Virus record (IMG/VR): IMGVR_UViG_3300007960_000019
Direction: 5' to 3' (one strand)
Source: an uncultured virus (IMG/VR IMGVR_UViG_3300007960_000019)
Taxonomy: Duplodnaviria; Heunggongvirae; Uroviricota; Caudoviricetes
Length of the DNA stretch: 64,000 nucleotides
Both the position numbers and the translations under genes were made by a program. This document shows, in pieces, positions 9,940 through 53,361 of the stretch (positions are counted from its first letter, which is position 1; each line of letters opens with the position of its first letter). The notes under the pieces are model-generated. The model ran no database searches. It was not told where the DNA came from and saw only the letters and a program-made list of their open reading frames with translations.

Positions 9940-10424
9940 TTAAACTAGGAAAATTGAAATTAACAAGTTTGTTTAAGCAAGTTACCTCAGAATCTAAGCA
10001 AGTTAAGGCTTACCATATTGCTCGTGAGCACTTTGGGTTAAGAGAGATCCGTGGTAATGGTCATGAGCCGAAGATTCTGGAGTTCTTTAATGCTGTAGGA
10101 CACTCTTGGGTAAAAGACGACGAGACTGCTTGGTGCGCAGCTTTTGTCGGAGCTTGTCTTGAAGCAGCAGGTATTGTTAGTTCCCGCCGGTTGAACGCTC
10201 GTTCCTACCTAGAGTGGGGTGACCCTGTGTCCTCACCTAAAGAAGGTGATATTGTAGTATTCTGGCGAGGCTCCCCAAAAGCTGCCACAGGACATGTCGC
10301 ATTTTTCGTCAAGCATAATGACAATGGTGATTTTATTGTTCTAGGCGGAAATCAGTCCGATATGGTAAACGAGCAGGTCTACGCTAAAGAACGTGTTCTT
10401 AGCATTCGTCGTTATCCAGAATAA
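9936..10424 (+). CDS. endolysin, TIGR02594-type NlpC/P60/CHAP-like peptidase
   Basis: DDETAWCAAFV, ARSYLEWG, GDIVVFWRG, GHVAF and LGGNQ motifs. Confidence 0.85.
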   Translation: MIKLGKLKLTSLFKQVTSESKQVKAYHIAREHFGLREIRGNGHEPKILEFFNAVGHSWVKDDETAWCAAFVGACLEAAGIVSSRRLNARSYLEWGDPVSSPKEGDIVVFWRGSPKAATGHVAFFVKHNDNGDFIVLGGNQSDMVNEQVYAKERVLSIRRYPE

Positions 10425-10440
10425 ATACGACGTACTAATG
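10423..10440 (+). promoter_or_regulatory. phage RNAP promoter, class A copy 1
   Basis: AAATACGACGTACTAATG, 13/18 identical to T7 TAATACGACTCACTATAG; repeated five times, always intergenic. Confidence 0.85.
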
Positions 10441-10542
10441 ATAAAGAGGACAGATGTCTGGAAGTTGTAAGCCAGTAATATCTGACTGTCCTCCCAGAGG
10501 GGTTAGTTTTCCTTAAGCTAACCCCTTATTCTTATAGATAAA

Positions 10543-10560
10543 AAATACGACGTACTAATG
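10543..10560 (+). promoter_or_regulatory. phage RNAP promoter, class A copy 2 (upstream of portal)
   Basis: AAATACGACGTACTAATG, exact copy 120 bp after copy 1. Confidence 0.85.
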
Positions 10561-10674
10561 AGGGGTATCCCAAGATAATTCTATAAGGTTAATATTAAGG
10601 ATACCTTAAAGGGTATCTTTAATACTACCCTTGTGTAGTATGTTTTATTAATAATAGATATAGAAAGGTATGTT

Positions 10675-12246
10675 ATGGCTAAACTACGTAAGCCTTCTAA
10701 AGCTGTAAAAAGGTCCGTTTCAGATCCTTCTGATTCTTATCACAGCCTGAAACCCCTGTGGAAAAAATCCCGATCAGTGCTCAACGGGGACGCACATACT
10801 AAAGCTCACGATGAATTTCTCGATGTTTATAATTACAGTAACCTGCTAATTCCTTTTTCTCCTTCTATGACTCAGCAACAGTATGAGTTCTATAAGTCAG
10901 AATCAGAACTACCGGGCCTAACAGCTCAGTACTGCAAGGTGTTGATTAGCGCACTTCTACGTAAGAAGTCATTACTTACACTTCCTGATGGTCTTCCAGA
11001 AGATGCCCTCGATTGGATCGAGAAAGATTTTACAAGTGATGGTCAGTCATTGTTTAACTTCCTCGACAGTGCTATCTGGGAAGAACTTCAAACTTCCCGT
11101 GCTTGGGTTTATGTAGATTATCCCACGTTCTCCGATGAAGAGTTAGAAGGGATGTCTACAGAGGAGCGTATGTCTATCTCCCCTTATCCTGTATTACTAA
11201 AAGCAGAGAACGTCATTAATACACAGATTAAAGTACATCCAGTGACTAAACAGCGTACTCTGACCCGTTTCGTTACGAGGTATATTGCTGAAAACTACTC
11301 TAAGGAAAACCCTTGGCATCCTGATTATGTAGATACTGTTGCTGACCACTACTTAGATGAGGCTGGGCGTTTAGTTATTGACTACTACCAGAAGAAAGAT
11401 CTCACTGGTGAAGTAGAAGTAGTTAATGGTGATGTAACCCAAGACTACAAAGACATGCAGGTAACCGAAGCTGGCTTCGAGAAGTTTAATACGGTATATC
11501 CAACCATGTTTGGTGAACGTGTATGGCGTATCCCTGCGTGGCCCCTAAATGGTCAACTAGAACCTGTAGAGCCTGTACTAATGCCTCTTATTGATAGAGA
11601 AGTGGCGCTATATAACAAGGTATCACGTCGTAACCATCTCCTTTATGGTGCTGCGACTTATACTCCAGTGGTACAGTCTGATATGTCAGATGAAGAATTT
11701 GAGGAGCTAGTTAATGCTGGTCTCGGCACTTGGCTACGTGTTCGTAAAGACGAATCAATTTCTGTTCTTGAAACGCCAACAAGTGCCCTAGCTGACATGG
11801 ATCGAGCAATCCAAACTACTGTTGAAGAGATGGCTAGAATGGGGATCCGTATGCTTTCCCCCGAACAAGCAGCCTCTGGTGTCGCTCTAGAGATTCGTAA
11901 TGCATCCCAGACAGCACAGCTAGGTGCTCTTAATGCTAAGATCTCTTCTACTATGGAAGAAGTTATTGCTTTTATGCTTAACTGGAAGTATGATTCTGAC
12001 TTTAGCGGTAATGATGTTAAGTTCCAACTAAGCTCTGACTTCTCTGCTCTTGTTGGTGGTGAAGGGGCAATGCGTCTCGTCTCAGAATGGTACCAAAGTG
12101 GTATTATTTCTCGTGAGACCTTTATTTCTATTGCGAAATATAACGACTTCTTGCCAATGAACTATGATGATGAGGCGGCGATTCAAGCTATCCAAACTGA
12201 TCCTATCATCAATCAGACTCCTGACGACAACGTTCAAGTGGAGTAA
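10675..12246 (+). CDS. portal protein
   Basis: 523 aa, first gene of the head cluster; SGVALEI and ISRETF motifs resemble siphovirus (DUF4055-like) portals. Confidence 0.8.
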   Translation: MAKLRKPSKAVKRSVSDPSDSYHSLKPLWKKSRSVLNGDAHTKAHDEFLDVYNYSNLLIPFSPSMTQQQYEFYKSESELPGLTAQYCKVLISALLRKKSLLTLPDGLPEDALDWIEKDFTSDGQSLFNFLDSAIWEELQTSRAWVYVDYPTFSDEELEGMSTEERMSISPYPVLLKAENVINTQIKVHPVTKQRTLTRFVTRYIAENYSKENPWHPDYVDTVADHYLDEAGRLVIDYYQKKDLTGEVEVVNGDVTQDYKDMQVTEAGFEKFNTVYPTMFGERVWRIPAWPLNGQLEPVEPVLMPLIDREVALYNKVSRRNHLLYGAATYTPVVQSDMSDEEFEELVNAGLGTWLRVRKDESISVLETPTSALADMDRAIQTTVEEMARMGIRMLSPEQAASGVALEIRNASQTAQLGALNAKISSTMEEVIAFMLNWKYDSDFSGNDVKFQLSSDFSALVGGEGAMRLVSEWYQSGIISRETFISIAKYNDFLPMNYDDEAAIQAIQTDPIINQTPDDNVQVE

Positions 12247-12308
12247 TATTATGCCCTGAGTACGGCAAAAAAACTGCTCACCACACTAACTACTCATGGG
12301 AGTACTAG

Positions 12309-15300
12309 ATGGCTAACGTTAACGATAAAATCTTTGACCGTATTGTAGAGCATATGTCAGATGTAAGACTCTATGAAGAAGGCCAACAAATCCTACAGCG
12401 ACGTATTATTAGACGACACCGTGAGAATTTGACAAAACTTCTGAAGAAGGATATAAGGTCTGATGTTACACGGGAAGTAAATCGATTCGCTAAAGAATTA
12501 AATAGCTCCACTACTAATAGTATTAAGGAGTTCTCAACTTCCCAGATTGATTTCCATACGGACAATCTATACCGTGAAGTTAAAGATTTCTATAAAATGA
12601 GGAAGCCTACTACAAAAGAGCTTCTATCAGAGATTACTGGTACCGGAATGAGGGGTGAGAAATCCCTTTCAGGTAATGTCAGGAATATTGCTTCTGGGGA
12701 ACTTATACGAATCCAGTCAAGGGTAAGGTCTGGTTTGGCTTATAATAAGTCACCAAAAGAGATTATTGCTGATGTCATGAAAACGACTAAGCTGACAGAA
12801 CATCAGGCGTCTACACTGACAAGAACAGCTATTACGTCTACTCAAACAGCAGCACTTAATAAGGTTGTTCAGGAGAACAAAGATGTAATCAAGGGCTATA
12901 TGTTTACGGCAATCTTGGACTCCCGTACAAGCCCTATCTGCTCACACCACAATGGTAAAATCTATGATGTAGATGACAATCGCTTTATGCCACCTCTGCA
13001 TTGGAACTGTCGTTCAAGTTTAGTACCTGTTCTAAAGAGCAAGGAAGAGCTGGCGAATACAGGAAATGATAACATTTCTGTATTTGGTGAACAGCATACA
13101 CTGAAGAACGTTGGTCTTGTAGAACGCAGAGTTGAAAAGTTTAATCCCTCTGTGGTATACCATGAATTCTATGAAGATCCTGAGACTATCGCTTGGGCTA
13201 AGAAAAACAACTTTATTCTGAGGAAGGGCGACCTTAGCTATGCTGAGAAGGATGCTCTTGTTAAGAAGTATGGCGGTGCTACGGAACAATTTCACCGTGA
13301 CCGTGAAGCTTTCATGTATAACCAGATGAAGAATGCTGACAAAAATGTTCGTACTGCTTTTATAATGGGTAACGACCATGCTTTCGATTCAGGTTCTGTT
13401 ATCTTTAAAGATAAGTCCTTCCGTAAGGTAGATTATCGTGGTAAGGTGTTTGAAGCATCTACTCGTATTCAGAAGTCTAAACTGGAGAAGATAGCAGACA
13501 CTTACTTTAATGGGCTATCTGCTAAGATTCAGACTTTCACTGAGTGGCTTCGTAAACAAGACTTCGACACTATGGTGAAGATGCTAGGTAGTGAAGAACG
13601 TGCTAAACTATTTAAAGGTGGTGCACTTGAAGCTCGTGAGTTTATAACACCAAAAGGGACTGTCCTATCTATCCAAGCCCTTCGTGCTCGGGCGAGTAAG
13701 ATAACTTCTGTGTTTCGACCCCGTCAGGTTGTTAAGGATACTAACCTCCGTGTTGAAGCCCGTAATCCAAACTCTCTGCTCAACAACCCTAAACATCAAT
13801 CTGATCTAGAACAACTCTTTATTTCAGATGCAGATGACTACAACTCAGCCTTTGCTCTTACAGATTTCAAAGGTACTAGTCTTGTAGGTAAACAAGCATC
13901 CCGTAGACGAATGAGTAATCAGTTCGATGAACGCAACTTCATTACTGATACCTTTACTGGTGAGGTTCGGAGCAATCTAACTTACGAGCCGGACTTCAAC
14001 CTGTTTCAAGAACGACTAGACTTTATGAAGTCTGCTAAAGACTTGACAAGTGAGCAGAAGGATTTTATTGAGGGTCTAGCTATTAAGCTGACTGACAAAG
14101 TGTCAGTAAATCAGCAAATTGTAGCTGTTGAGAATCTTCGTGTCACTTTCCAGCGATATAATAGCAGTAAGGAGCCTTGGTCTGATCTTGCATCCGTAAT
14201 CCGAGCGGAAAATAGGTTCTCTGTTCAGAACGTATCACGTCTGCTAGATGTTCGTGCAAGGAAACGTGCAGAGTTGTTCGGTGGGTTTGTGTCTACAGGT
14301 GATAAACCTAAGATGCAGATTATGGGTAAGTACTATAATGTAGAAGACCTAGTCAACGATCAGCTATCAAACCAGCGTTTTATCGACAACTGGCGAGCTA
14401 CAGAAGGTACTAAGCTAGCTAAGAAGGTTTACTACAGAGGTCGTGCCCCCATCAATGCGTATACTCAGGCTATCATTCGTAGGTATCCGGATAAGGAAAA
14501 GCTCATTGATAAGATGCTAGATAACGTCATACCGTTCCGTAAACAGTATAAGGCATACCTTAAGTGGAAAAATAAACCGCCTTCTGATGACTGGATTACT
14601 AGGCAAATTGCCAAGTTCCGTGAAGGTGTTCGTCAGATCTATGACTTAGAGTGGCTCTATGCTAAACAGCGTCCGACTTCTAAGCTTATGGACGACAAGG
14701 TTCTTCATACCACTACAAAGGCTCTTAAGCTTGTAGCCTCTGGTCGTGCTACAGATTATGACTCCCTAGCTATCAATATTGGTAAGATGTATCATCAGGA
14801 TCTGGGGGATTTAAATCCACTTGCTACGTATACCTTAAAGGATTACCACAAAGAAGGATCTAAGATTCTGGAGTTTATGCGTGAGCAAAACCTAATCAGG
14901 GTTAGTTTCCGTGGTAAGACTCGTAGAGGTGTGTGGGATGTTGATACAGGTCGAGCGTCAGGTGGTTGGGCTGATATGATTACTCGGGAAGTTCAGGTAA
15001 TTGATAAAACTCTTCTCAAGCTGCAAGAAGCAGAATTGAAGGCTACTTATGCTCGCCGTTTTGGTGTCGTATATGACAGAGATCGGCTTTATGTAAAAGC
15101 AGGTAATAAAGAGTTCTTTGACGCTAGAGGTAACAAAACAGGTATCCCTATTATCTCTGCGGATAAGTACCCTGACTATGATCCTAACCAGATCGATGCT
15201 GAAATGGCAAAGATGATGAATCATGTTACTAGCGTGAACTACCGCGTTGATGACGAGTTCTTCGATTTTATGGATGACGTTGTACGATTCCGTGACCCCC

Positions 15301-17084
15301 GTGGTAACACGAAGTACTATGATGAGCTTAATGAGTTCCGTCATGAAATTATCAATCGCGGTGAAGCTGGTTACGGTTTAATGGCTACTGCTAAGTATCA
15401 TCGCCAAAGAGGTAAATCCTTCAAGACTGATGTGTTTATTGACTCCCGTGGTCGTGTGTACCATCGTGGTTATCTTACACCTACAGGTGGCGAAATGGTT
15501 CGTCCATTCCTGAACTCTGATAAAGCTGTAGCTATACAGATGGCTGATGTTAATGAACTCCGTATCCAGCTTGGGGCGATGATTGGTCCCGGTACTGAGG
15601 CACTAACTCAAAGTGGTCGTCTTGATATCTTTAAGCGCAACGAGTCTAAGATTCTTGAGCTTGCTGGTTTGCTACAAGCTAAGACACAACGTGATCGCCG
15701 TATCCGTGAATTTCTTGAGCACCCTTTGATTAAGGGTCTTGAAGGTAAAGAAGTTCCAAAGATGGCTCGTTTTGCTTTAGAGTATAAGCGTATTCATGAC
15801 CATGTAGGTGGTAACTTCTCTAATACTGCACTATTGAAAACTTATAAAACCCGTTTGATGATCGAGAATGACGCCTCTTCTAGTGGTGCTCAAATTATCG
15901 GTCTATCCACGGGCGATAGGGCCATTGCAGAGGCTTCAAACGTCGTTGCTACAACCCGTAAGAATCGTCTTTATGACCTTGTTGCTCAGGACACAGTTAA
16001 TGACCCAGAGTTCCTAAAGATTCCTGCTCTACGTAATGCAGGCTTGACTTGGGAAGACTTAGCTAAAGGTGCGAAAGCGCAGAACATGGTGACATTCTAC
16101 GGTGCTGGGGAAGCCACAAAGACCGCAAAAATCGCTAATAAAATCTCAGGTATTCTTGAGAAGAAGGGCTATGCTACAATTACTAAAGATAACGTCAATG
16201 AAATACTTCGTATCGTTGACGGTAAAATCAAGACAGCCGATAAACTCGGTGCTAACGCTACAGTCGATTCACTAAAGAGCTTCCGAAGTGAACTGATTGA
16301 AATGGTAAATGGAAATACCCCGGTTGGACGTAACTTACTAACTATGGCGAGAGACCTTCACCCGGATGTAGAAGACTTCGTTCTGAAGGTTTCAAACTCT
16401 CGTGTTGGGCTTGTAGGGCCGAAAGACTTCGAAGAAATTTCAAGGATTATGTCTAAGCACCTCTCTCAACGTGCTCCTGTTACTGACGAATTCATTAACT
16501 TCTGGAAATCAGCAGCTAAAGTATACGTTAAGGAGACCGAGAAGGTGGATATCCCTTGGGTGACGTTTGATGGTAAAGTCATGATGCAAAGATATCGTGG
16601 CAAGAGTCAAACTCGCATTGACTTTACAGACCCAGTTACTGGGCGTAAAATTGCAAACATCTATGAAGGTACTGTTGAGGATGGTTTACTGCGCGGTAAA
16701 CACGCTTTCCAAGATGCTTCTATCGGCCTAGGTGTTAACGGAAACCACAGCAATGACGCTGTGATCGTGCGCAGGTTCCATCTTTGGGGGAGAGATAACG
16801 GAGTGGATACTGGAACCATCCATGACGCTTTTTTCACCAATCTAGCTGACGCACAAAAAGCTAAAGACGCCTTGAGAACCATCTATGCAGATGCTCTTGA
16901 AGGTGACACAATCAGGAAGACTCTCTACGCATGGCGTAAAGAAGGCCTAACTAAATCAGCGTATGACGCTCTCATTGCTGATGCAAAGAAACGTGGTCTT
17001 ATTGACCCACCAAACAAACTAACCCGTGCTGATATCCTTGCCCCTATTAAGGAAGGATACGATTGGTATGGGATTGGTCCTTGA
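12309..17084 (+). CDS. MuF (SPP1 gp7-like) minor head protein fused to a T7-family single-subunit RNA polymerase (putative virion RNAP)
   Basis: N-terminal AILDSRTSPIC...PPLHWNCRS (MuF). C-terminal IDSRGRVY (~aa1045), ENDASSSGAQ (motif A, ~aa1188), KAQNMVTFYG (motif B, ~aa1256), TIHDAF (motif C, ~aa1506). Confidence 0.88.
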   Translation: MANVNDKIFDRIVEHMSDVRLYEEGQQILQRRIIRRHRENLTKLLKKDIRSDVTREVNRFAKELNSSTTNSIKEFSTSQIDFHTDNLYREVKDFYKMRKPTTKELLSEITGTGMRGEKSLSGNVRNIASGELIRIQSRVRSGLAYNKSPKEIIADVMKTTKLTEHQASTLTRTAITSTQTAALNKVVQENKDVIKGYMFTAILDSRTSPICSHHNGKIYDVDDNRFMPPLHWNCRSSLVPVLKSKEELANTGNDNISVFGEQHTLKNVGLVERRVEKFNPSVVYHEFYEDPETIAWAKKNNFILRKGDLSYAEKDALVKKYGGATEQFHRDREAFMYNQMKNADKNVRTAFIMGNDHAFDSGSVIFKDKSFRKVDYRGKVFEASTRIQKSKLEKIADTYFNGLSAKIQTFTEWLRKQDFDTMVKMLGSEERAKLFKGGALEAREFITPKGTVLSIQALRARASKITSVFRPRQVVKDTNLRVEARNPNSLLNNPKHQSDLEQLFISDADDYNSAFALTDFKGTSLVGKQASRRRMSNQFDERNFITDTFTGEVRSNLTYEPDFNLFQERLDFMKSAKDLTSEQKDFIEGLAIKLTDKVSVNQQIVAVENLRVTFQRYNSSKEPWSDLASVIRAENRFSVQNVSRLLDVRARKRAELFGGFVSTGDKPKMQIMGKYYNVEDLVNDQLSNQRFIDNWRATEGTKLAKKVYYRGRAPINAYTQAIIRRYPDKEKLIDKMLDNVIPFRKQYKAYLKWKNKPPSDDWITRQIAKFREGVRQIYDLEWLYAKQRPTSKLMDDKVLHTTTKALKLVASGRATDYDSLAINIGKMYHQDLGDLNPLATYTLKDYHKEGSKILEFMREQNLIRVSFRGKTRRGVWDVDTGRASGGWADMITREVQVIDKTLLKLQEAELKATYARRFGVVYDRDRLYVKAGNKEFFDARGNKTGIPIISADKYPDYDPNQIDAEMAKMMNHVTSVNYRVDDEFFDFMDDVVRFRDPRGNTKYYDELNEFRHEIINRGEAGYGLMATAKYHRQRGKSFKTDVFIDSRGRVYHRGYLTPTGGEMVRPFLNSDKAVAIQMADVNELRIQLGAMIGPGTEALTQSGRLDIFKRNESKILELAGLLQAKTQRDRRIREFLEHPLIKGLEGKEVPKMARFALEYKRIHDHVGGNFSNTALLKTYKTRLMIENDASSSGAQIIGLSTGDRAIAEASNVVATTRKNRLYDLVAQDTVNDPEFLKIPALRNAGLTWEDLAKGAKAQNMVTFYGAGEATKTAKIANKISGILEKKGYATITKDNVNEILRIVDGKIKTADKLGANATVDSLKSFRSELIEMVNGNTPVGRNLLTMARDLHPDVEDFVLKVSNSRVGLVGPKDFEEISRIMSKHLSQRAPVTDEFINFWKSAAKVYVKETEKVDIPWVTFDGKVMMQRYRGKSQTRIDFTDPVTGRKIANIYEGTVEDGLLRGKHAFQDASIGLGVNGNHSNDAVIVRRFHLWGRDNGVDTGTIHDAFFTNLADAQKAKDALRTIYADALEGDTIRKTLYAWRKEGLTKSAYDALIADAKKRGLIDPPNKLTRADILAPIKEGYDWYGIGP

Positions 17085-17179
17085 ACTATTTGTAATAGCC
17101 TATGGACTACCAAACTTAACCGAGTCTGTGACTCTTATATATATATAACTTCAGTCTGTGACTGGAAAGGAAAAAATCA

Positions 17180-17857
17180 ATGAGTGAGAATCTAGAAAAT
17201 CAAGTCGAAGAAACCACTGAAGCCACTGAAGCTGAAGCACCCGAAGCTGAACAAACAGAAGAAACAGCTAAGGCAAAGCCAGCAGATGACATTGAAGCTA
17301 TCGTTGAAGAACGTCTAGCTAAGATGAAGGCTAACATGGACCGCATGGTAAAAGAGCGTGATGAGGCTCTAAAGGCTAAAGCAGAGATCGAAAAGGCTAA
17401 GAAAGACGCTGAGATTGCCCGTATGAAAGAAGAAGGCAAGCTGCAAGAAGCCCTTGAGATGGAACTAGCAGAAGCTAAGGCTAAACTCGAACTATACCAG
17501 AAGGACATCACTTCTCTGCGCCGCGATGGTGCTGTGAATGATGCTCTTGCAGGACTTGAATTCCGCAATGAGAAATCCCGTGAGATGGCTCGTCGTGAGA
17601 TCACTGATGACCTAATTCAAGATGAGCAAGGTATGTGGGTACACAAATCAGGCGCATCAATTAAAGACTTCATTGTTTCTTACTCAAAGAATGAAGACAA
17701 TTCATTCGTGTTCAAAGTTAAATCTAACTCTGGTGCAGGTACTGGCACCCCTGCAGGTGCACCCACAACCGATGTAAAGAAATCCATCGGTGAAATGTCA
17801 ACTCAGGAAATTCTAGCACTTGCCGCTAAGGGTAAGCTAGGTAATTTTGGTTACTAA
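17180..17857 (+). CDS. capsid scaffolding protein
   Basis: Acidic N-terminus, E/K/A-rich coiled coil, SGAG linker; directly upstream of the major capsid gene. Confidence 0.8.
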   Translation: MSENLENQVEETTEATEAEAPEAEQTEETAKAKPADDIEAIVEERLAKMKANMDRMVKERDEALKAKAEIEKAKKDAEIARMKEEGKLQEALEMELAEAKAKLELYQKDITSLRRDGAVNDALAGLEFRNEKSREMARREITDDLIQDEQGMWVHKSGASIKDFIVSYSKNEDNSFVFKVKSNSGAGTGTPAGAPTTDVKKSIGEMSTQEILALAAKGKLGNFGY

Positions 17858-17884
17858 TATAATCCTACATAAAGGAATTAACAA

Positions 17885-19003
17885 ATGGCTATTACAAATA
17901 CTGACTTTCAGAATATCTCTCTAGCTATCTCTGCCTATGCAGATGAGGCTTACACCAATGCAAAGAAGCTAAATGGTACAGGTATCGTTGCTGCTGACCA
18001 GAAAATTGATGTTTCTGGCGAAAACTTCTACGGCCAGTTCCGCTGGTACAAGCCACTATCAGCAACCGTTAACGTTGCCTCACTATCAAGTGCCACTGAC
18101 GGCACCTACACCTCAATCACCACCGACTACGCGAACTTCATCAAGACCGTTCGTACCTTCGGTGCCGAGCAGGTAAACATGCAGGAAGTCGTATCAAAGC
18201 AGGACGGTCTCGCAAAGATCGCTCGTGACTTTGCTGAAGTCCGTGCACAGGACGAGCATGATGCGCTTCTCTCCGTTCTAAAAGGTGTTTCACACTACGA
18301 AGTCGCTCTAGGCGATGCCGGTGGTGTTGGTAATGGTGGTGTTATTGACTTCGATACTGATACAGACGCTTCTGCGACTGGTTTCTTCGTTGATGTGAAC
18401 GCGCTTGGTCTACACGGTGCAGCTGCTACCGGTTCTGGCGACGAGCGTAAGCTTTTCGACTCAAGCGCAATCGGTGCTGCTCGTGGTGAGCGCCTATTCC
18501 GTTCAATCGGTGCTGCCTTCAAGGACTACGAGCCTGACTACATGTACCTCGTAACCTCACCTGAAGTTATGGCAGAAATGCGGGCTGCTAACCTTGTTGA
18601 CCAGTCAAAGGTCACCGATGGCAACCTAGAATTCTCAACCATTTTCGATGGTAAGTTCCGTCTAGTGATGACCCGTGCAAACCAGATGATTGCTGGTGCC
18701 GCTTCTGGCGACCTAAACGCTCGCTCTACAAAGTGTACCTTCGTTATCAAGCCCGGTTCAGTCGCAAACGCGATGATCGGCCTTCCAACCCCCGTTGAAG
18801 TAGATCGTAGTGCTGCTTCTTACACTGGTGGTGGTTCAACCAACGTATGGTATCGCTGGGGCTACGCAATGCACCCAATGGGCTATGACTGGGCTGGTTC
18901 ACAGACAGCCTTCGCAACCAACACCACTCTAGGTACTGGTGCTTCATGGGCTCGTAAGATGGACAGCCTTAACTTTGGTATCCTACCAATCTTCCACGCC
19001 TAA
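17885..19003 (+). CDS. major capsid protein
   Basis: 372 aa after the scaffold, strong SD, biased codon use; PVEVDR...GGG...W...HP.GY.W C-terminal pattern. Confidence 0.85.
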   Translation: MAITNTDFQNISLAISAYADEAYTNAKKLNGTGIVAADQKIDVSGENFYGQFRWYKPLSATVNVASLSSATDGTYTSITTDYANFIKTVRTFGAEQVNMQEVVSKQDGLAKIARDFAEVRAQDEHDALLSVLKGVSHYEVALGDAGGVGNGGVIDFDTDTDASATGFFVDVNALGLHGAAATGSGDERKLFDSSAIGAARGERLFRSIGAAFKDYEPDYMYLVTSPEVMAEMRAANLVDQSKVTDGNLEFSTIFDGKFRLVMTRANQMIAGAASGDLNARSTKCTFVIKPGSVANAMIGLPTPVEVDRSAASYTGGGSTNVWYRWGYAMHPMGYDWAGSQTAFATNTTLGTGASWARKMDSLNFGILPIFHA

Positions 19004-19020
19004 CTTAATAGGAGGAACTA

Positions 19021-19527
19021 ATGGCACTAGTTCTTAATACGAACAGCTATGTGACTGTCGCAGAAGCTGATACTTACTTTGAGACTCGTATTGACAGTGC
19101 TAATTGGACTGACGCTACTGATGAAATCAAAGAACAGGCGCTTGTCACAGCTACACAACTAGTTGATGATAACGCTTGGATTGGTTCTGCTGTTAGTTCC
19201 TCCCAAGCTCTTGCATGGCCTCGCACTTCCGCAATCTACTACGATGACCGACTCGGTCAACAGATTACTATTGCGGAAGACGAGGTTCCATCTCGTGTTA
19301 CAGTGGCTGTATATGAGCAGGCTCTTCACTTGATTAACAATGAAGACCTTCTCTCAGGAACAACTCAAACTTTTGAGAGCATCTCTGTAGGTTCAATCAG
19401 CCTATCAGACTCAAATGGTGACGTTACAAAGACCTCTATTAGACCTTCAGTTGTCATGAAACCTATCCGCCCTTTAATCCGGCGCGGGTCTGGTGGAATG
19501 GGTACAGGGTGGTGGAGGGCTAACTAA
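19021..19527 (+). CDS. head-tail adaptor
   Basis: NSYVTVAEADTYF...QALAWPR motif; position after MCP. Confidence 0.8.
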   Translation: MALVLNTNSYVTVAEADTYFETRIDSANWTDATDEIKEQALVTATQLVDDNAWIGSAVSSSQALAWPRTSAIYYDDRLGQQITIAEDEVPSRVTVAVYEQALHLINNEDLLSGTTQTFESISVGSISLSDSNGDVTKTSIRPSVVMKPIRPLIRRGSGGMGTGWWRAN

Positions 19528-19862
19528 TGTCGCTCACATCTAAAATCAGAGCAGCTGTAAATAAAGCATTCGCAGCTGTCGATGACTTGGTAGTAATTGC
19601 TTCTCTTTCAACAGAGAAAGTATCCTCTTATGACTTCTCATCTCGTGGTGTTGTTTCTACAACAGGACGTCAGACTGTAGAAGTTATTATTGAATCCACT
19701 CAGAAGCCCTCCGGTGATGGTTTTACTACGACCGCTCTTATGAAGTCAGGTATAGACCTGAGTGTCTATGATACCTTAACTGTTGGAAGTATCCGCTACA
19801 ATATCGTTGACTATACTGATAACGGTTTTATTCTAACTGCTATCCTAGTAAGGGAGAAGTAG
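19527..19862 (+). CDS. head closure/stopper protein
   Basis: Size and synteny only. Confidence 0.55.
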   Translation: MSLTSKIRAAVNKAFAAVDDLVVIASLSTEKVSSYDFSSRGVVSTTGRQTVEVIIESTQKPSGDGFTTTALMKSGIDLSVYDTLTVGSIRYNIVDYTDNGFILTAILVREK

Positions 19863-19863
19863 A

Positions 19864-20265
19864 ATGTATGACTTAGTACTAGAAGATATCGAAGGAGTAT
19901 TTGCTAGCGCACCTTGGACTACTAACGGTATCCTAACTGTACCTAGTAATTATCAAGGTACTAAGAATAATGCTAGAGAATATTGCTTGATGACTGTACT
20001 ACCTTCTTCAGGAAGTGACTACGATTACAGCAGAAACAAATTACTATCTGGAACAGTTGCTATAAAGATTTTCGTACCAGCAGGGAGTGGTCAAGGCCGA
20101 CTAATGGCTATCGCTGACCTGCTAAATTCTGTTCTTGAGAATACTACACTAACAAATAACACAAGGCTTGGGAAATCCTATCTACAAGTAGAAGGATTGG
20201 ACGCTGCTAATAAGTCACTTTACAGCGCATCTTATTTTATCCCATTCACACTATACGGAGAATAA
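19864..20265 (+). CDS. tail terminator-like protein
   Basis: G.V.I.IFVPAG.G...IAD.L pattern; precedes the tail tube gene. Confidence 0.65.
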   Translation: MYDLVLEDIEGVFASAPWTTNGILTVPSNYQGTKNNAREYCLMTVLPSSGSDYDYSRNKLLSGTVAIKIFVPAGSGQGRLMAIADLLNSVLENTTLTNNTRLGKSYLQVEGLDAANKSLYSASYFIPFTLYGE

Positions 20266-22139: not shown

Positions 22140-25100
22140 ATGCAAAAAGGTGTTGAAATCCGGGTACGTGCAGACACGTCCCAAGCAAAGAAACAAATCA
22201 AGAGCCTAGAACAATCTGTTGCTGGGCTTGAATCGACTGCCAGTAAGGTTGCAGGGGCTTTTAAGGCACTAGCTGTTACTATCACAGGTTTGCAAATTGG
22301 TAAGAAACTATCAGGAGCATCTGACACCTTACTAGAGATGGAGAACCGTCTAGCCCTTGTTGTTGGTCGGGGTAAGGAACTCTCTTCTACTCTTGAGCGG
22401 ATGTACAGGGTGGCAGAGAGGACGCGACAGCCTGTAAAAGTTGTAACTGATACTTTTAACAGGTTAGGTCTTGCACTAGATGGTACGGGCAGAAGCACAA
22501 AGCAACTACTAATTGCAACAGAAGCTATCCAACAAGCGGCTCAAATCTCTGGTGCATCCGCAACTACTGCTGAACAAGCTATCATCCAGCTTGGTCAGGG
22601 TCTAGCTTCAGGCCAACTACGTGGCGAAGAACTCAACTCGGTACTTGAAGGTATGCCACGACTTGCGCGAGCTATCGCCGAAGGTATGGGCGTTCCCTTT
22701 GGGAAACTAAGGGAGCTTGCAAAGGACGGAAAGCTAGAGGCTGAAACTATCTTCGAGGCTATCCTCTCTCAGTCTGAAAAACTTGCATTTGAGTTCTCTA
22801 CTCTTGAAGCCACTACACGTAGTTTAGCAATTGTATTTGGTGGGGAGTTCACCAGAGCACTAAGTATTCTAGACAAAGAGCTAGGCTTTGGTAAGAATAT
22901 GAGGGAACAACTCTTTATAGGTATTGAGGCCCTAAAGGTATTTAACGCTAACTTCTCTATTTGGGTTTCACTACTCAAGGCGAATATTACATTAGCTCTA
23001 AATGATCTTACCTTCTTTAAACTCCGTATGCGTGAGATTTTAGCTAGTATCTTTACTAAAGAAGGTATTAATACAGAAGCATTTGTAGACGAGCTTTTTG
23101 TTAACCCGTTTAATTCCGTAAAGGCTAAAATCGAAGAAGTATGGTCTGGTATTAACCTACCATCACTAGATCTTGCTTCAAAGATCCCCACATTTGAGTC
23201 TATTAGCTCAAATCTGATTAGTCTTAAAGACGGTGTTATCGGTGTATTCAAGGAGATCTGGGACAGGATTACAGGGCAATCTCTTTGGACTGGTATCTTT
23301 GATCCTGCTCACATGGAACCCGGCCAAACCCTCGCTGTCGGCTCCTCTCTAACTAAATACTTCGAAACACCTCTTAGAAATCTAGAGACTTTCAAGAATA
23401 GCATCATCGCTAAATTTAAAGAGATCAATAAAGACGCAACCGTGGCTTGGGAGAAGATTTGGACCGGGCTAACAACAAAAACTATCTCGACAGAGACAGG
23501 CCCAGAGGCCGTTGATACTGCCTTCGGACGTAGCATTGATTTAGCTAGTGATCAGCTAGAACGCGCCAAGAACGAACTTAAGAAAGTCTATGAGGATATT
23601 CTTACCGACACCATCGAGACACCCCGTGGTCCAAGGGTCGTTGATTCAGCTCTAGTAAAAACGCTAAAGGACATTCGTGACTACAGTGGGCAAATATCCG
23701 AAACGACACTATCAGGTCTTGCCGCTGCAATTAATGCCTTAGCTAATGCACCTGCTATCAAACTAGGTACTATCCTACTATCATCAGCCTTCACTAAAAC
23801 TAAAGAAAGTATTCTAAGTTTCGGCGCAGATATAGAAGAGTTCAAAACTAGTATCTCTAATTGGTTTAAGGAAAACGAAGCTGCGATCAGTGCATCTATC
23901 TCAATCGCCTTAGCTGCTGCTATTAAGTTTGGTGCTAAGAAGACCCTAATTGTCGGGGCGATCCTCGGGCTATTTAGCTTTAACGCGGATGAGGTTTTAA
24001 ATGATGAAGAGCTACAAGCTTCCTTAGAAAACCTAGGCGCTGGTTATGTGCAACTACTTAAAAGCGTATTCACTACTGACCCCGGAAGTACTCTCATGGA
24101 AGGGCTTAGAGATACTCTAGCAGCCTTTGGCAGAGGTATTAATAAAGAGATCTTTGGCGAAAACTTCACAACAGACACTCAAGATGCACTCGCTGGGGCG
24201 ATTGGAGCAATTACGGTTGCTGCTGTCCTGACTACTGGTGCGCGGGAAGCTCTAAAAGCTCTAGGTGTAGCGATTGCAAAGGTAATTATGGGTACAACCA
24301 TAGCTACAGAGCTTGCAGCTGGCTTGGCAATCGGTTTGGCTTCTATGAAGATGGCTCCGAATTCTTTACTAGGGACAGCGGCAGGAAATGTTGGTATCGC
24401 CCTTGGTCAGCTAATAGGGAAGTCGGCAGGGGCAGCAGCAACAGGTTTAGTTGTAGGGGTTGCTGTCGATATTATTGTACCTGATGAAGCATTCAATGGC
24501 CTCGGTGGAGCAATTGATAACGTAATCGGAGGTGCGGCCTTTGGTGCCCAACTAGGTGCCGCATTTGGACCTTATGGGGTAGCTGGAGGGGCGATCGCAG
24601 GTGGGCTAGCTGGTGCTATTTATGCGGCTGTAACAGACCCTAAAGTTGCTTCTGGTTTTAAGCAGATCTTCAGGGGGCTAAGAGAAGCCCTATACACGTT
24701 GCTTAACACAGTAGGCGTTGTATCCGATAAGACTCTTATAGAGACTCGTATCTCTGATAAAGCGGCAGATATCACAGTCCTAGAGTCGCAAATCACTCAA
24801 GCTCAACAGGAAGGTTCTGGTGCTGGACCTGTAGAAATAGCTAAGCTGAAGAATGCTAGGTTTGATCTAGAGAAGGAATTATTCCTGCTTAGTGAGAGTC
24901 TAAAAGAGCTTAATAATGCTGAGTATGTCGCACTCGCTGCAGAGGCCGCTGAAAAACAAAAAGCAGCTAATGATTTTATTGATCGTTTTATAACGGGATC
25001 TAAGGAACTTGTTGAAGGTATAGAAACACAGGACGAAGCACTCCTTGCAATTTTTGAAATCCAAAACGATATTAACAGTATTCTCCGACAGGTGGAAAGT

Positions 25101-26282: not shown

Positions 26283-26303
26283 AATTGTACGGGCTTTGTA
26301 ATC

Positions 26304-26326
26304 GAGAAATTGGAGCATCTATAATG
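26304..26326 (+). promoter_or_regulatory. candidate early promoter, class B copy 1
   Basis: GAGAAATTGGAGCATCTATAATG; shares GCATCTATAATG with 26697-26708. Confidence 0.4.
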
Positions 26327-26629
26327 GAGAAATGGAAAAAGCTCTTTATTCATAAAAATGGTAAGTTATACTGGAAAGCTGCCCGTGGCCGACAAGCTGC
26401 GGGTGGCGAAGCTGGTACTAACCACGGTGATGGGTACAAGACAGTCCGCATCAACGGGAAAGCTCACTACGTACACCGGATTATCAAGGAAATATCCACT
26501 GGTAAAAAGGTACGCGGTGAGGTAGACCACAAGGACCGCAAGCGGTCTAACAACAAACCGAGTAACTTGAAGAAAGCTACTCGATCACAAAACAATAAGA
26601 ACCGCAAATCATGGAAGCGGTCAAAATGA
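26324..26629 (+). CDS. HNH endonuclease (HNH_3-like)
   Basis: YVHRII...VDHKDRKRSNNKPSNL...T.SQN..N. Confidence 0.85.
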   Translation: MEKWKKLFIHKNGKLYWKAARGRQAAGGEAGTNHGDGYKTVRINGKAHYVHRIIKEISTGKKVRGEVDHKDRKRSNNKPSNLKKATRSQNNKNRKSWKRSK

Positions 26630-26634
26630 CAACT

Positions 26635-26662
26635 GGGATTCCCTTCGGGGAGTCCCTTTTTT
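26635..26662 (+). terminator. intrinsic terminator with UUCG tetraloop
   Basis: GGGATTCCC-TTCG-GGGAGTCCC followed by TTTTTT. Confidence 0.85.
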
Positions 26663-26684
26663 ATCAAAAATGGATCAAAAAAGT

Positions 26685-26708
26685 GAGAAAATTAAGGCAT
26701 CTATAATG
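26685..26708 (+). promoter_or_regulatory. candidate early promoter, class B copy 2
   Basis: GAGAAAATTAAGGCATCTATAATG just after a terminator and ~37 nt before an SD-led ATG (26745); no recognisable -35 box. Confidence 0.45.
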
Positions 26709-26744
26709 ATACAACAGTATCAGTCAGCAACAATGGAGTTTCCC

Positions 26745-26930: not shown

Positions 26931-27000
26931 ACTACTATTACCTCCGCCCTTCGGGGCGGGGGCTAAGAATTTAACTTTTTTTTTCGCTAGAAAGGAGTCC

Positions 27001-27339: not shown

Positions 27340-27419
27340 GAGATACCCCACCCCTTCGGGGGTTGGGGTTCCTCTAAGCCCTATTTTTTTCGTAGCATCA
27401 CAAAGTAAAGGACACTCTA

Positions 27420-28978: not shown

Positions 28979-29169
28979 GAACATATTAGATTGTCGCCCC
29001 CGCCCTTCGGGGCGGGGTTACTTATCCTTCCTATTTTTTTTTAAAGGAGTTAACATGATGACAATATACCTCTTGGCGCTGCTAATCGCAACGCTAAAGG
29101 GCTAAGTTTGTCATCACTCAAACCTCACAAAGGAATACATACGTATACTGTCCGCAAGAGGAGTGATAA

Positions 29170-31353
29170 TTGAATTACCTAGAAGAAATGACGAGAAACA
29201 TCTATGAAAGACAGAAGTTTCTAATTGGAATAAACGGGGAACCAGATAAAAGGAACAAAGCATGGGTTTTACATGATAAAGACCCTCGCGAATTGCTAGT
29301 AGCATCCTACGGGCATGTAATTTCAAGTATCGAGAGAGCTGCAACCTTAACACAAATGACTAACAGTGTCGGTAAGTGCATAGATCGAAGGTTACAACTA
29401 CGACTAGACGAGCAGTCTATTGTGCACGTTGGTTTCTTTATTCTAGTTGCCTACTTTGAGTCTAAGATATTAAGGTTCTTCTGTAAGCACCAAAAGAAAA
29501 AGGGCAAACGTTCTAAGTTTCCAGTGTACATGGTAGGTGTAAAAAACCTTGAGGCATTAAACTCAATCATGGATATGGTTGAGGAAGACAACGTAAGTCT
29601 ATTTCCCTCTAAACAACCTCTCGCTGACTGGGGTAACAGCTTCTACCATGAACAGCTGAAAATCCCATTTATTAAGAATGCTCATGTTAATGCCATAACA
29701 AGGGCGAAAACAAATGACATGTCTTACTTAAAAAGTGTTCTTAATAAGCTACAACGTACTGGGTGGCGCATCAATAAACCTGTTTTTGATGCTTTCGAAG
29801 CTTGTTTAAATTCTCCAGTAAGTCCTTTCAAGTTCAGCAAAGAGATTGATCCTGAGAAAAGGGCATCCTTACTTGTAGAAGTTAGCGCTATCTATAAACT
29901 TTCTATCAAAAATATCGATAACCCCTTCTACCACCTATATAACCTTGACTTCCGTGGTAGGATTTACCCCAACACTGCCTTTCTACATGAGCAATCGTCT
30001 GATAACGCAAAGGGTCTTCTTCTTTTAGATGAACCTGTAAAGCTCGGAAAAGAAGGTAGTTACTGGCTAGCTGTACATACTGCAAACGTATGGGGTAACG
30101 ATAAGGTTTCTCTAGACGATAGAGTACAGTGGGTAGACGATAATATGGATGATATTCTCCTCTATGCATCTGACCCTATGAAGTACATTGGCTGGATGGA
30201 TGCGGAGAAACCATTCTGCTTCCTAGCTTGCTGTTATGAGTGGTCCATGTTGTCCAACTGGAATGGTGATGGTTATGCAATTGAGGATTTTCCATCATGT
30301 CTACCGGTATACATTGACGGTTCGAATAATGGTGTACAACACTTGGTTGCAATGTCTAAAGATGAAGGGATTGCACCTCTCGTGAATCTAGTGCCACAGG
30401 AACTTCCCGGCGACGTTTATATGTTCATCGCAGAACATACTATGGAAAACGTTCAGAGAGATCTAGCAGAGCTGGACCCTAAGCTTGTTAACATGTTTGA
30501 CGAGATCCACCCTACATTAGTTGAGCTTCGTAAAGATGTCGCCAAGTATGTACCGGGGACCGAGTTGTATACTTCAGCTAAAAAACGACTCAGCGAGTTT
30601 GGCAACTCATGTCACGATAATAAGAGTAAGCTAGGTCCTGTCTTTTGGTCTAAAGTCACTGATAAAAAGATTTGGAGGAAAACTGTTAAACGCCCAACTA
30701 TGACTCTTGGCTATGGTGGTACTCAGTTTGGCATGGTGGATATGGTTGATACTGACACCGAGGGGCTTTCTGAGTACCTCCGGCATAAAGACAAATCTTG
30801 GTCTGCTTATCTTGGACGACGTATCTACGACACTTGCTATGAAGAGTTAAAGGGACCTGCTGCCCTACTCAAGATGTTCGTAAAACTAGCGGAGCAAGAA
30901 AACGAAAAAGATACACCTATCACCTTTGACCAGATTGTCACAGGTTTCCCCTTCGTACACTCTTACAGGGAACCCGAGACTAAAGTGGTGCGACTAAACT
31001 ACCAAGGGCAACGACTAGAACTAAGGATTGAAGTCTGGAAAGAAGCAACCTTGAAAAAGTCTAAACAAAAGACTGGTGCAGCTCCTAATATAGTACATAG
31101 TGTAGATGCAGTCCATCTGAGTATGTTTGTAAATGATGCTCCATACCCTGTTACAGTGGTGCATGACTCCTTTGGCTGTCATGCAGGTAACATGGACAAG
31201 GCTTTCCATGATGTAAGGCTTAAATTCATAGAACTTTATGAAATGGATCCTCTGGAATACATTTTATCCCAGATGGATGCGATACACCTGATCCCAGAAA
31301 AAGGAAAACTGAATGTGCACGAGATCCTCGATTCCGATTACGCTTTTGCTTGA
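29170..31353 (+). CDS. T7/T3-like single-subunit DNA-directed RNA polymerase
   Basis: LDFRGRIY, IDGSNNGVQH (A), RKTVKRPTMTLGYG (B), PNIVHSVDA, VVHDSFG (C); TTG start with GAGGAG SD. Confidence 0.95.
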   Translation: MNYLEEMTRNIYERQKFLIGINGEPDKRNKAWVLHDKDPRELLVASYGHVISSIERAATLTQMTNSVGKCIDRRLQLRLDEQSIVHVGFFILVAYFESKILRFFCKHQKKKGKRSKFPVYMVGVKNLEALNSIMDMVEEDNVSLFPSKQPLADWGNSFYHEQLKIPFIKNAHVNAITRAKTNDMSYLKSVLNKLQRTGWRINKPVFDAFEACLNSPVSPFKFSKEIDPEKRASLLVEVSAIYKLSIKNIDNPFYHLYNLDFRGRIYPNTAFLHEQSSDNAKGLLLLDEPVKLGKEGSYWLAVHTANVWGNDKVSLDDRVQWVDDNMDDILLYASDPMKYIGWMDAEKPFCFLACCYEWSMLSNWNGDGYAIEDFPSCLPVYIDGSNNGVQHLVAMSKDEGIAPLVNLVPQELPGDVYMFIAEHTMENVQRDLAELDPKLVNMFDEIHPTLVELRKDVAKYVPGTELYTSAKKRLSEFGNSCHDNKSKLGPVFWSKVTDKKIWRKTVKRPTMTLGYGGTQFGMVDMVDTDTEGLSEYLRHKDKSWSAYLGRRIYDTCYEELKGPAALLKMFVKLAEQENEKDTPITFDQIVTGFPFVHSYREPETKVVRLNYQGQRLELRIEVWKEATLKKSKQKTGAAPNIVHSVDAVHLSMFVNDAPYPVTVVHDSFGCHAGNMDKAFHDVRLKFIELYEMDPLEYILSQMDAIHLIPEKGKLNVHEILDSDYAFA

Positions 31354-31557: not shown

Positions 31558-31575
31558 TAATACGACGTACTAATG
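31558..31575 (+). promoter_or_regulatory. phage RNAP promoter, class A copy 3 (upstream of SSB)
   Basis: TAATACGACGTACTAATG, 14/18 identical to the T7 consensus. Confidence 0.85.
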
Positions 31576-31634
31576 ACCAAAGGGATCACCTAGGTCTTAT
31601 ACACTATAGAGAACATACCAAAAGGAACAATATT

Positions 31635-42186: not shown

Positions 42187-42204
42187 AAATACGACGACCT
42201 AATG
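42187..42204 (+). promoter_or_regulatory. phage RNAP promoter, class A variant copy 4 (upstream of exonuclease)
   Basis: AAATACGACGACCTAATG, two substitutions relative to the other copies; intergenic. Confidence 0.75.
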
Positions 42205-42246
42205 ACTAAATGGGTCCGTTAAATATAATTATTAAGGAGGTCTATT

Positions 42247-53085: not shown

Positions 53086-53103
53086 AAATACGACGTACTA
53101 ATG
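53086..53103 (+). promoter_or_regulatory. phage RNAP promoter, class A copy 5 (start of late/packaging region)
   Basis: AAATACGACGTACTAATG after a hairpin and T-tract. Confidence 0.85.
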
Positions 53104-53361
53104 ATGATGATACATCCGGTGTAAGGCATCGTTAATAGCCCTCAATAGAGACCTGTCAAGGACTACTATAGCTAAAATAGTCTGCTATTACCATAAGCGA
53201 CTAACCCTCTTTGTACATAAGAGGTGGACCCCGACTGGTATGCCCCTAAGTAACTTCGAGGAGTTATGTTACCTAGGTTAAGTTGAAACTCCCCCCCTCA
53301 CAACATGAGGCCCTAGCTCAGGGGTCTTTATAGTAGTCCTTGATGTGACTTATTAGAGGCT
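53103..53361 (+). ncRNA. candidate structured non-coding RNA or leader
   Basis: No long ORF; 16-bp helix 53155-53170/53329-53344 extended by AGCC/GGCT ends, a 5' hairpin, and several internal hairpins. Confidence 0.55.

Follow-up and report, generated by a model that had tools for sequence, protein, structure and literature searches.

A phage minor head protein fused to a T7-like RNA polymerase: a candidate virion-packaged enzyme in a siphovirus-type genome

Here we analyse a gene that joins a MuF-type minor head domain to a T7-like single-subunit RNA polymerase (RNAP). It was found in a stretch of 64,000 nucleotides (nt) from an uncultured virus of the Caudoviricetes (IMG/VR record IMGVR_UViG_3300007960_000019); this whole stretch is called the window below. 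The gene is a single ATG-started open reading frame (ORF) encoding 1591 amino acids (aa) plus a stop codon and lies within the late structural operon, in the slot between portal and scaffold that the original prediction had assigned to it, with the major head protein gene next in line (Table 1). It is the sole match to a MuF or minor-head family among the 60 window ORFs scanned, and the fusion is therefore the phage's own MuF protein rather than an extra copy. The same order of portal, fusion, scaffold and major head protein is found in the phage DSS3_VP1; a megablast search of window positions 10000-20000 against the phage collection returned no match. Sequence comparisons and structure models identify the product, with near certainty, as a minor head protein of the MuF/SPP1 gp7 type that carries a T7-like single-subunit RNAP as C-terminal cargo.

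The N-terminal domain belongs to Phage_Mu_F by sequence, by gene position beside the portal gene and by fold. The Pfam profile (PF04233) matches residues 135-238 over profile positions 3-111 of 112 (E 8.1e-16; 59.2 bits against a curated cut-off of 29.6), which backs the signature previously picked out by eye (LDSRTSPIC at residues 203-211 and PPLHWNCRS at residues 228-236), and the PHROGs head morphogenesis family phrog_241 matches with E 9e-48. An AlphaFold2 model of residues 1-690, built with the family alignment (mean predicted local distance difference test score, pLDDT, 80.1), contains a confident helical-plus-sheet MuF domain at residues 1-250, with pLDDT above 90 over most of its length. 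A Foldseek search of BFVD with this part gave 86 matches at E<=0.001, and the named proteins among the 50 listed were mostly minor capsid and head morphogenesis proteins; the matches include a 1192-aa protein of Xanthomonas phage Xp12 named NAD(+)--protein-arginine ADP-ribosyltransferase. Searched against the Protein Data Bank (PDB), the 690-residue model had no Foldseek match at E<=0.001, and a wide VIA comparison returned generic helical bundles only (best Z 10.9). Selection was examined in an alignment of 36 full-length homologues with 20-77% identity to the window protein, in all of which the MuF residues L203, D204, T207, C211, P228, H231, C234, R235 and S236 are invariant.

The MuF domain is followed by a low-confidence linker (pLDDT below 50 over residues 256-289 and 345-383) that is largely absent from homologues of about 1460 aa; the DSS3_VP1 protein has 1463 aa, and its match spans 92% of the query. 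Beyond the linker, a conserved middle module consists of a small domain at residues 390-465, with W413 and Q417 invariant, and a confident helical domain at residues 480-660. A PHROGs family annotated as of unknown function, phrog_14819, matches residues 401-459, while the module as a whole had no informative match in the PDB (Foldseek at E<=0.001 and the wide VIA comparison), and residues 386-676 had no usable match in the ESM Atlas.

The C-terminal part, some 915 residues, is a T7-like RNAP by sequence, by fold and by its catalytic motifs, except at the position of the motif B arginine. The Pfam family RNA_pol (PF00940) matches residues 1177-1548 (E 9.7e-8; 31.7 bits against a curated cut-off of 22) and phrog_414 (RNA polymerase) matches with E 6.6e-26, with a weak match to phrog_2166, "N4-like RNA polymerase" (E 1.5e-4). 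The DxxGR motif and motifs A, B and C stand in the order and at the places that had been read from the sequence, with motif B as LAKGAKAQNMVTFYG, and the profile matches lend them support. In searches of the PDB, phmmer with the single sequence found T7 RNAP at E 1e-3, and a profile of 36 family members found it at E 5.4e-17, aligning DxRGR and motifs A and C residue by residue.

An AlphaFold2 model of residues 392-1591, again built with the family alignment (mean pLDDT 83.4; predicted template modelling score 0.75), adopts the right-hand polymerase fold, in which palm, fingers, thumb and N-terminal domain are all represented, so that the polymerase proposed earlier is what the C-terminal part models as. 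The best Foldseek match is T7 RNAP (3e2e; E 7.8e-20). VIA-align likewise ranks T7 RNAP first (8dh5_M; Z 32.0, root-mean-square deviation (rmsd) 7.7, 590 aligned residues, model 289-1198 against T7 37-882), ahead of the yeast mitochondrial RNAP (Z 28.8) and the human mitochondrial RNAP, and gives a Z of 17.9 for the N4 mini-vRNAP (2po4; rmsd 4.3, 517 aligned residues). Because the match spans T7 residues 37-882, the cargo is a near-complete T7-type enzyme with an equivalent of the N-terminal domain, beyond the palm-and-fingers core. Sequence alignment places both catalytic aspartates in the palm, and a beta-hairpin occupies the place of the T7 specificity loop.

Polymerase residues that do not vary among the 36 homologues include R1049, D1188, K1256, Y1264, D1483 and D1506, indicating that the active site of the fused RNAP is under selection. 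The cargo is complete and, as far as its sequence can tell, catalytically intact. The divergence of motif B that had been pointed out holds good: Ala1252 stands 12 residues before the tyrosine and aligns with the canonical arginine of T7 (which we take to be Arg627), and the adjacent K1253 is conserved in at least 90% of the 36 homologues. This substitution and the modest Pfam score of 31.7 bits are what could be said for regarding the module as an inactive relic that serves as a structural or DNA-binding component of the head. We consider that reading very improbable, given that the catalytic aspartates, the lysine and tyrosine of motif B and the arginine of DxxGR do not vary down to 20% identity and that the whole T7-like fold is retained at high model confidence.

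Table 1. Positions of the fusion gene, its domains and motifs, and the other principal features in the window
Feature	Position	Strand	Basis or remark
Portal protein gene (523 aa)	10675..12246	+	phrog_145 portal protein, E 6.9e-46
MuF-RNAP fusion gene	12309..17084	+	single ATG-started ORF, 1591 aa plus stop
MuF / SPP1 gp7-type minor head domain (aa 1-250)	12309..13058	+	Pfam, AlphaFold2, BFVD Foldseek
Low-confidence linker (aa 256-385)	13074..13463	+	AlphaFold2; largely absent from ~1460-aa homologues
Conserved middle module (aa 390-660)	13476..14288	+	AlphaFold2, homologue alignment, phrog_14819
T7-like single-subunit RNAP module (aa 676-1591, ~915 aa)	14334..17081	+	includes N-terminal-domain equivalent; AlphaFold2, Foldseek, VIA-align
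DSRGR (T/DxxGR motif), aa 1045-1049	15441..15455	+	aligned to T7 D-W-R-G-R; R1049 invariant 36/36
Motif A NDASSSG, aa 1187-1193, predicted catalytic Asp1188	15867..15887	+	aligned to T7 FDGSCSG; D1188 invariant
Motif B LAKGAKAQNMVTFYG, aa 1251-1265	16059..16103	+	K1256 and Y1264 invariant; canonical Arg replaced
Motif C IHDAFF, aa 1504-1509, predicted catalytic Asp1506	16818..16835	+	aligned to T7 IHDSFG; D1506 invariant
Scaffold gene	17180-17857		3' of fusion gene
Major head protein gene	17885-19003		after scaffold
Tape measure gene	22140-26282	+	
Partial early-element copy (GCATCTATAATG)	26303..26327	+	overlaps start of HNH endonuclease ORF
Full early promoter-like element and hairpin	26677..26721	+	A-tract, GTGAGAAAA, N5, GCATCTATAAT, then GATAC-AACA-GTATC
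Free-standing T7-like RNAP gene (727 aa, C-terminus ...DYAFA)	29170..31353	+	phrog_414, E 7.8e-128; Pfam RNA_pol, E 7.4e-77
Primase-helicase gene	43577-45229	+	
Large terminase gene	54841-56172	+	
Putative late promoter copy 1 (AATACGACGTACTAATGA)	10424..10441	+	upstream of portal and fusion genes
Putative late promoter copy 2	10544..10561	+	upstream of portal gene
Putative late promoter copy 3	31559..31576	+	directly after free RNAP gene, ahead of genes for single-stranded DNA-binding protein (SSB) and replication
Putative late promoter copy 4 (2 mismatches)	42188..42205	+	ahead of exonuclease gene
Putative late promoter copy 5	53087..53104	+	ahead of block with large terminase gene

The original prediction had drawn an analogy with the virion RNAP of phage N4. 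Its domain assignment and architecture stand; against that analogy, T7 and mitochondrial RNAPs are structurally much closer to the fused polymerase (Z 32 and 29) than the N4 enzyme is (Z 18). N4 gp50 is a protein of about 3,500 aa from a podovirus lineage, with injection and encapsidation regions of its own at the N- and C-terminus, no MuF domain, and hairpin promoters. The window protein has 1591 aa, with MuF at its N-terminus and the RNAP at its very C-terminus. Since architecture and closest structural relatives differ, the fusion protein is not a member of the N4 family; four intergenic stretches, scanned for short inverted repeats, contained nothing convincing in the way of N4-style hairpin promoters. 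What the fused RNAP would share with gp50 of the Schitoviridae is the proposed logic, with a MuF domain as the carrier and a siphovirus-type structural module around it. The N4 virion RNAP, according to PMC5512222 and other published work, is a single-subunit enzyme of the T7 superfamily that is encoded among late genes, encapsidated and injected for early transcription, a second phage RNAP serving the middle genes.

With T7 RNAP, the fused enzyme has in common the fold over T7 residues 37-882, the DxRGR motif, motifs A, B and C and the specificity-loop hairpin. To our knowledge, T7-like RNAPs are free-standing enzymes that are made early from host promoters and are not components of virions. 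The window enzyme differs in lying behind some 675 aa of head-protein sequence in a late operon and in lacking both the motif B arginine and the FAFA-type end, whereas the free-standing RNAP encoded in the same window (described below) ends in YAFA. Similarities to SPP1 gp7, phage Mu F and the MuF proteins with toxin, ADP-ribosyltransferase or RNase cargo lie in the N-terminal domain, the gene position on the portal side and the layout with C-terminal cargo. None of the papers searched describes a MuF protein with a complete RNA polymerase for its cargo.

Relatives of the fusion protein are numerous. A word-indexed protein search returned 351 proteins at E<=0.001, and most of the 120 listed have about 1450-1600 aa and combine PF04233 with PF00940, which is the architecture of the window protein. 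An exhaustive search of 1.84 billion representatives (50% level) gave 149 at E<=0.001, with full-length matches aligning from their own residue 260-280 onwards, that is, from just past the MuF domain. In IMG/VR, at least 559 stretches encode a relative of the fusion. Among named phages, full-length matches were confined to DSS3_VP1 and DSS3_PM1 (Naomviridae; 59% identity), in whose records the gene is labelled "minor head protein-like protein" or "head morphogenesis", and EBPR siphovirus 1 (28.5%). Judged from the encoded proteins, a large and mostly marine group of phages has the fusion as a conserved hallmark; its members include the roseophages DSS3_VP1 and DSS3_PM1, both with deoxyuridine (dU) in their DNA, which PMC8323127 and PMC12697855 describe for DSS3_VP1.

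Several homologues are interrupted within the polymerase. In EBPR siphovirus 1 (L005 20046-25419), an HNH endonuclease gene divides the fused gene into gp47 and gp49, with the break inside the RNAP rather than at the MuF-RNAP junction. Many metagenomic homologues of about 1140-1180 aa (P0126, P0130, P0135, P0137 and others) stop near the equivalent of window residue 1261, within motif B, and separate proteins of about 330 aa begin where these stop. The split and short homologues suggest that the catalytic site is the target of a homing element or mobile intron. A further homologue with 42% identity (L075, G020:C1:4275-5771) has three in-frame TAA codons in a frame of 1794 codons, which may reflect a broken gene, an intervening element or reassignment of the stop codon.

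The window represents most of one phage genome, with every sizeable gene on the plus strand. It opens with tail fibre and tail genes, followed by holin and lysin, portal, fusion, scaffold, major head protein, connectors and tape measure; after the tape measure gene come an HNH endonuclease gene, a block of small genes, a second RNAP gene, and genes for SSB, DNA polymerase, exonuclease, primase-helicase, ribonucleotide reductase and large terminase. It starts and ends inside the fibre region and thus is not a complete genome; repeated modules were noted in tail-fibre genes at both window ends (1-86 and 63914-63999; 60643-62490). The second RNAP is a free-standing T7-like enzyme. DSS3_VP1 has the same gene order, including a free "RNA polymerase" gene, and a free RNAP is also encoded in three of the five longer related contigs checked, the other two being fragments with an estimated completeness of 41% and 71%. 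That the fused RNAP might be a recent duplicate of the free one was considered and rejected, the BLASTP similarity between them being at motif level only (best E 0.009).

Two classes of candidate promoter accompany the two polymerases. The first is an 18-mer, AATACGACGTACTAATGA, with five copies of no more than two mismatches, all intergenic and all on the plus strand, where shuffling predicts 0.03. The 18-mer resembles the promoters of the T7 group in its AT-rich 5' part, variable core and ending in TA(A)T followed by G, and its copies stand ahead of replication, packaging and structural genes; none occurs between 26.3 and 31.4 kb. These features are consistent with a putative promoter of the free RNAP for middle and late genes. 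DSS3_VP1 has a repeated motif of its own, ATAGG(G/T)T(G/A)CGTTAAAGAGG-like, some copies of which lie upstream of its portal gene, and 7 of 23 related contigs have a duplicated motif of at least 12 nt within 300 nt ahead of the portal gene, its sequence differing from contig to contig.

The second class is the early element between the tape measure and free RNAP genes, which lies just 3' of a terminator-like hairpin (26635-26656) closing the tail operon. A hairpin with the sequence GATAC-AACA-GTATC begins at the G right after its TATAAT, and the element ends in TAATGA, which is common to the late 18-mer. Its conserved positions run contiguously over about 36 nt, including the GCATC in what would be the sigma-70 spacer. 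The element recurs nearly base for base in DSS3_VP1, where two copies stand just after the tape-measure gene; L001 has sites at 34540-34590 and 34990-35040, and each related contig seen to reach this region carries one to four copies (four in G002, three in G004, two each in L018 and L038, one in L030). The arrangement of an HNH gene behind the tape-measure gene, with a partial copy overlapping its likely start codon, is shared with L015, L018 and L038 and was not seen in DSS3_VP1. A scan of IMG/VR with the pattern GAGA-N8-GCATCTATAATG found 119 stretches, from which 79 loci were examined. At 61 of these a homologue of the tape measure protein, the free RNAP or both was found beside the motif; it lay downstream of the tape-measure gene at all 54 loci with a match to that gene and, at all 35 loci with a free RNAP match, preceded the RNAP gene in the same orientation at a distance of 836-3897 nt. 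A single motif match is all that 15 of the 18 loci lacking such neighbours carry. A perfect stem of at least 5 bp starting exactly at the G after TATAAT is present in 71 of 126 unique instances, compared with 0.5% in shuffled sequences. Ten different stem sequences were seen (among them GATAC/GTATC, GATATA/TATATC, GATAAA/TTTATC and GAACGA/TCGTTC), with loops of varying length, and covariation of this kind suggests a transcript that begins directly with a stem-loop.

Many phages with a T7-like RNAP rely on host RNAP for their early genes. Applied here, as in T7 and Xp10, host sigma-70 RNAP would transcribe the early region from the TATAAT elements and the free RNAP would do the rest, leaving the fused RNAP, packaged or not, as an auxiliary, back-up or late-phase enzyme. 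A perfect -10 hexamer behind an A-rich tract is what such a host enzyme could use, and terminator-like sites, each a GC-rich hairpin with a T-run, separate the early genes. On the other hand, in the instances of the element that were inspected, TATAAT has neither a TTGACA-like hexamer at 16-18 nt on its 5' side nor a TG extension, and a sigma-70 scan of 20.5-32 kb, made with a generic consensus that may not be that of the host, found 19 sites against 16.7 expected, which is the level of chance. Conservation is contiguous over some 36 nt and takes in the supposed spacer GCATC, and the covarying stem starts 1 nt after TATAAT, so that a sigma-70 start would fall within it; the invariant active site in a head protein would also be left without a role. 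We regard early transcription by the host enzyme as unlikely, if the most serious of the alternatives.

We favour instead recognition of the early element by a T7-type polymerase, because of the contiguous conservation, the missing -35-like hexamer and TG, the TAATGA end and the stem that begins at the G after TATAAT. A T7-type start at this G would fit the stem, whereas a sigma-70 start about 7 nt further on would not. Between the two T7-type enzymes, the fused one is the favoured reader. Lying 3' of the early element, the free RNAP gene cannot owe its first transcript to its own product. The fused RNAP modules of the window and DSS3_VP1 share 62% identity and have a specificity-loop region that is well conserved, whereas the two free RNAPs share 47% and diverge in that region; the sharing of the early element, while the late promoters differ, together with the better conservation of the fused RNAP favours the fused enzyme as the reader.

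The early region contains further structures of note. GC-rich hairpins with TTCG loops lie between its genes (26635-26656, 26940-26985, 27345-27390, 28994-29045 and 32178-32205), and with their T-runs they look like terminators rather than promoters; in three of them 13-16 nt separate the hairpin from its T-run, an unusual layout for an intrinsic terminator. The early block also encodes a pentapeptide-repeat protein (27420-28058; Pfam E 8e-64), the DNA of which shows 29 tandem 15-nt repeats, and which is possibly a DNA mimic or anti-defence protein.

These observations can be assembled into a model of the infection cycle. Late in infection, the fusion protein would be made together with the portal protein from the 18-mer promoters that precede the portal gene. 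Docking of its MuF domain on the portal would then leave a few copies enclosed in each procapsid. At the next infection it would leave the capsid with the DNA, presumably unfolded, and refold, whereupon the fused RNAP would start at the early element, initiating at the G after TATAAT. The early block from about 26.7 to 31.4 kb would then be expressed, yielding small proteins, the pentapeptide-repeat protein and, from the last gene, the free RNAP, which would take over at the 18-nt promoters and transcribe the replication, packaging and structural genes. Such a two-polymerase cascade would need little or no host RNAP and would suit relatives with dU in place of deoxythymidine.

We judge this full model of a virion RNAP to be probable by a modest measure. 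The context fits a virion-delivered early RNAP in several respects: the fusion is the sole MuF gene, it lies in the late operon, its catalytic residues are invariant, and the window has a second RNAP with promoters of its own and a separate early element. Packaging, ejection and the reading of the early element by the fused protein are suggested by analogy with SPP1 gp7, MuF-cargo fusions and N4. In the portions of PMC6316719 that deal with these proteins, SPP1 gp7 is stated to enter procapsids in few copies by way of the portal, and delivery at infection is proposed for gp7-like proteins that bear a toxin at the C-terminus.

The fusion might instead never be delivered to the next cell, either because MuF localises the RNAP at procapsids or at replication and packaging centres late in infection, or because the fusion is processed and the RNAP acts in the producing cell. 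The fusion gene does lie behind late-type promoters, the disordered linker of about 130 aa after MuF could be a cleavage site, and a ClpP-family protease is encoded at 50846-51481. Yet the free RNAP already serves the late promoters, transcription at procapsids has no known role, and the fusion is intact in hundreds of relatives, with EBPR siphovirus 1 split beside its HNH gene inside the RNAP and not at the MuF-RNAP junction; action confined to the producing cell seems improbable to us. We are similarly doubtful that the fusion is packaged and ejected for a mainly mechanical task, in which transcription pulls the genome into the cell, or for replication priming. T7 and N4 are established cases of genome entry driven by transcription, and the enzyme here is a full-length T7-like RNAP. 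A pulling role, however, needs a promoter too and is compatible with early expression, which makes it more an addition than an alternative, and for priming the phage encodes a primase-helicase of its own. The sections of PMC6316719 on gp7 add that the protein aids the start of infection, with about 25% of virions lacking gp7 being infectious, a point that accords with a mechanical role.

A number of observations weigh against a virion RNAP acting at the early element. The perfect TATAAT with its upstream A-tract keeps recognition by host sigma-70 holoenzyme a live alternative; the fused RNAP lacks the canonical arginine of motif B and ends in DWYGIGP, whereas the free RNAP has an end of the FAFA type; the model requires a 180-kDa protein to traverse the tail of a siphovirus, and delivery of MuF cargo is itself a proposal. 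With regard to the early element, the 126 instances and the position counts are biased, the loci having mostly been fetched by the motif and some overlapping on one contig. Perfect stems of 5 bp or more are absent from 55 of the 126 instances, and the hairpin could be an operator at the DNA level rather than a 5' RNA stem, which we consider the weaker alternative. The motif is also missing from the 45 kb examined of EBPR siphovirus 1 (28% identity). That the motif marks only phages with the fusion was not borne out: among 13 long records that contain the motif, just 3 have a gene for the fused RNAP, and in the other 10, mostly with single matches, none is detectable. We explain these by incomplete contigs and by the single hits that a 16-base pattern is expected to make by chance in so large a collection; in one record, estimated to be 65% complete, four motif copies occur and no fusion was detected. 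Finally, a text search found neither "RNA polymerase" nor "RNAP" in the Naomviridae papers PMC8323127, PMC12697855 and PMC12669031, and the main text of the isolate paper contains no virion proteomics.

The remaining genes include several of less common kinds. The HNH endonuclease gene (26285-26629) lies directly 3' of the tape-measure gene, and a SegE-like GIY-YIG homing endonuclease gene (42911-43402) stands between the exonuclease and primase-helicase genes. Unusual auxiliary genes, besides that for the ClpP-family protease, encode an SbmA/BacA-family transporter (49891-50877; Pfam E 2e-123) and a protein with a weak MotA/ExbB-like match (48171-48875). Two genes of the dCMP-deaminase family and one of the nucleoside 2-deoxyribosyltransferase family lie at 41553-41969, 51780-52184 and 32255-32692; among 29 window ORFs scanned, none matched the HD/YfbR family (dTMP phosphatase).

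Virion-packaged RNAPs are known from few lineages, namely N4-like, crAss-like and phiKZ/PBS2-like phages, and each has been informative about transcription, genome ejection and evasion of host control. PBS2/AR9 and phiKZ-like phages use two sets of phage RNAP, of which the first is packaged and serves early genes and the second is synthesised once infection has begun, and the DNA of PBS2/AR9 contains dU. Their enzymes are multisubunit and beta/beta'-like, with a fold unrelated to that of the single-subunit RNAP described here; the parallel lies in a self-sufficient polymerase cascade, which would be shared with dU-DNA relatives such as DSS3_VP1. Where it treats these modules, PMC5512222 states that N4-like virion RNAPs occur only in N4-like phages and prophages, and it lists toxins, RNases (PBECR), 2H phosphoesterases and RelA/SpoT domains as MuF cargoes. 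Full-text term searches were made of PMC8323127, PMC12697855, PMC12669031, 10.1101/2025.10.29.685362, PMC9855967 and PMC11934525. MuF proteins with cargo and virion RNAPs are thus each known, whereas their combination, with a full T7-type enzyme in a siphovirus-type genome, was not found in the literature searched, from which subscription journals and supplements were excluded.

If the model is correct, siphoviruses would gain their first virion RNAP, and MuF proteins their first cargo that is both enzyme-sized and functionally defined. A T7-type enzyme tethered by MuF would represent a third, structurally simple solution to bringing a polymerase into the cell, and would allow the long-standing idea of MuF domains as carriers of cargo into the host to be tested on a concrete case. 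Non-pathogenic model members of the group, DSS3_VP1 and DSS3_PM1 on Ruegeria pomeroyi, are in culture, and the two candidate promoter classes offer handles for in vitro work; the fused and free RNAPs with their promoters may also give orthogonal pairs of single-subunit RNAP and promoter for biotechnology. For the phages themselves, the finding could explain how the first genes are transcribed in a globally distributed group, some members of which have dU-substituted DNA. On this broadest view, to which we give an even chance, an abundant family of marine siphophages (Naomviridae-like, some with dU-DNA) would have independently invented a virion RNAP hung on MuF, which is threaded through a long, non-contractile tail, reads an early promoter of about 36 nt that is conserved throughout the family and, together with the free RNAP, makes infection independent of host RNAP.

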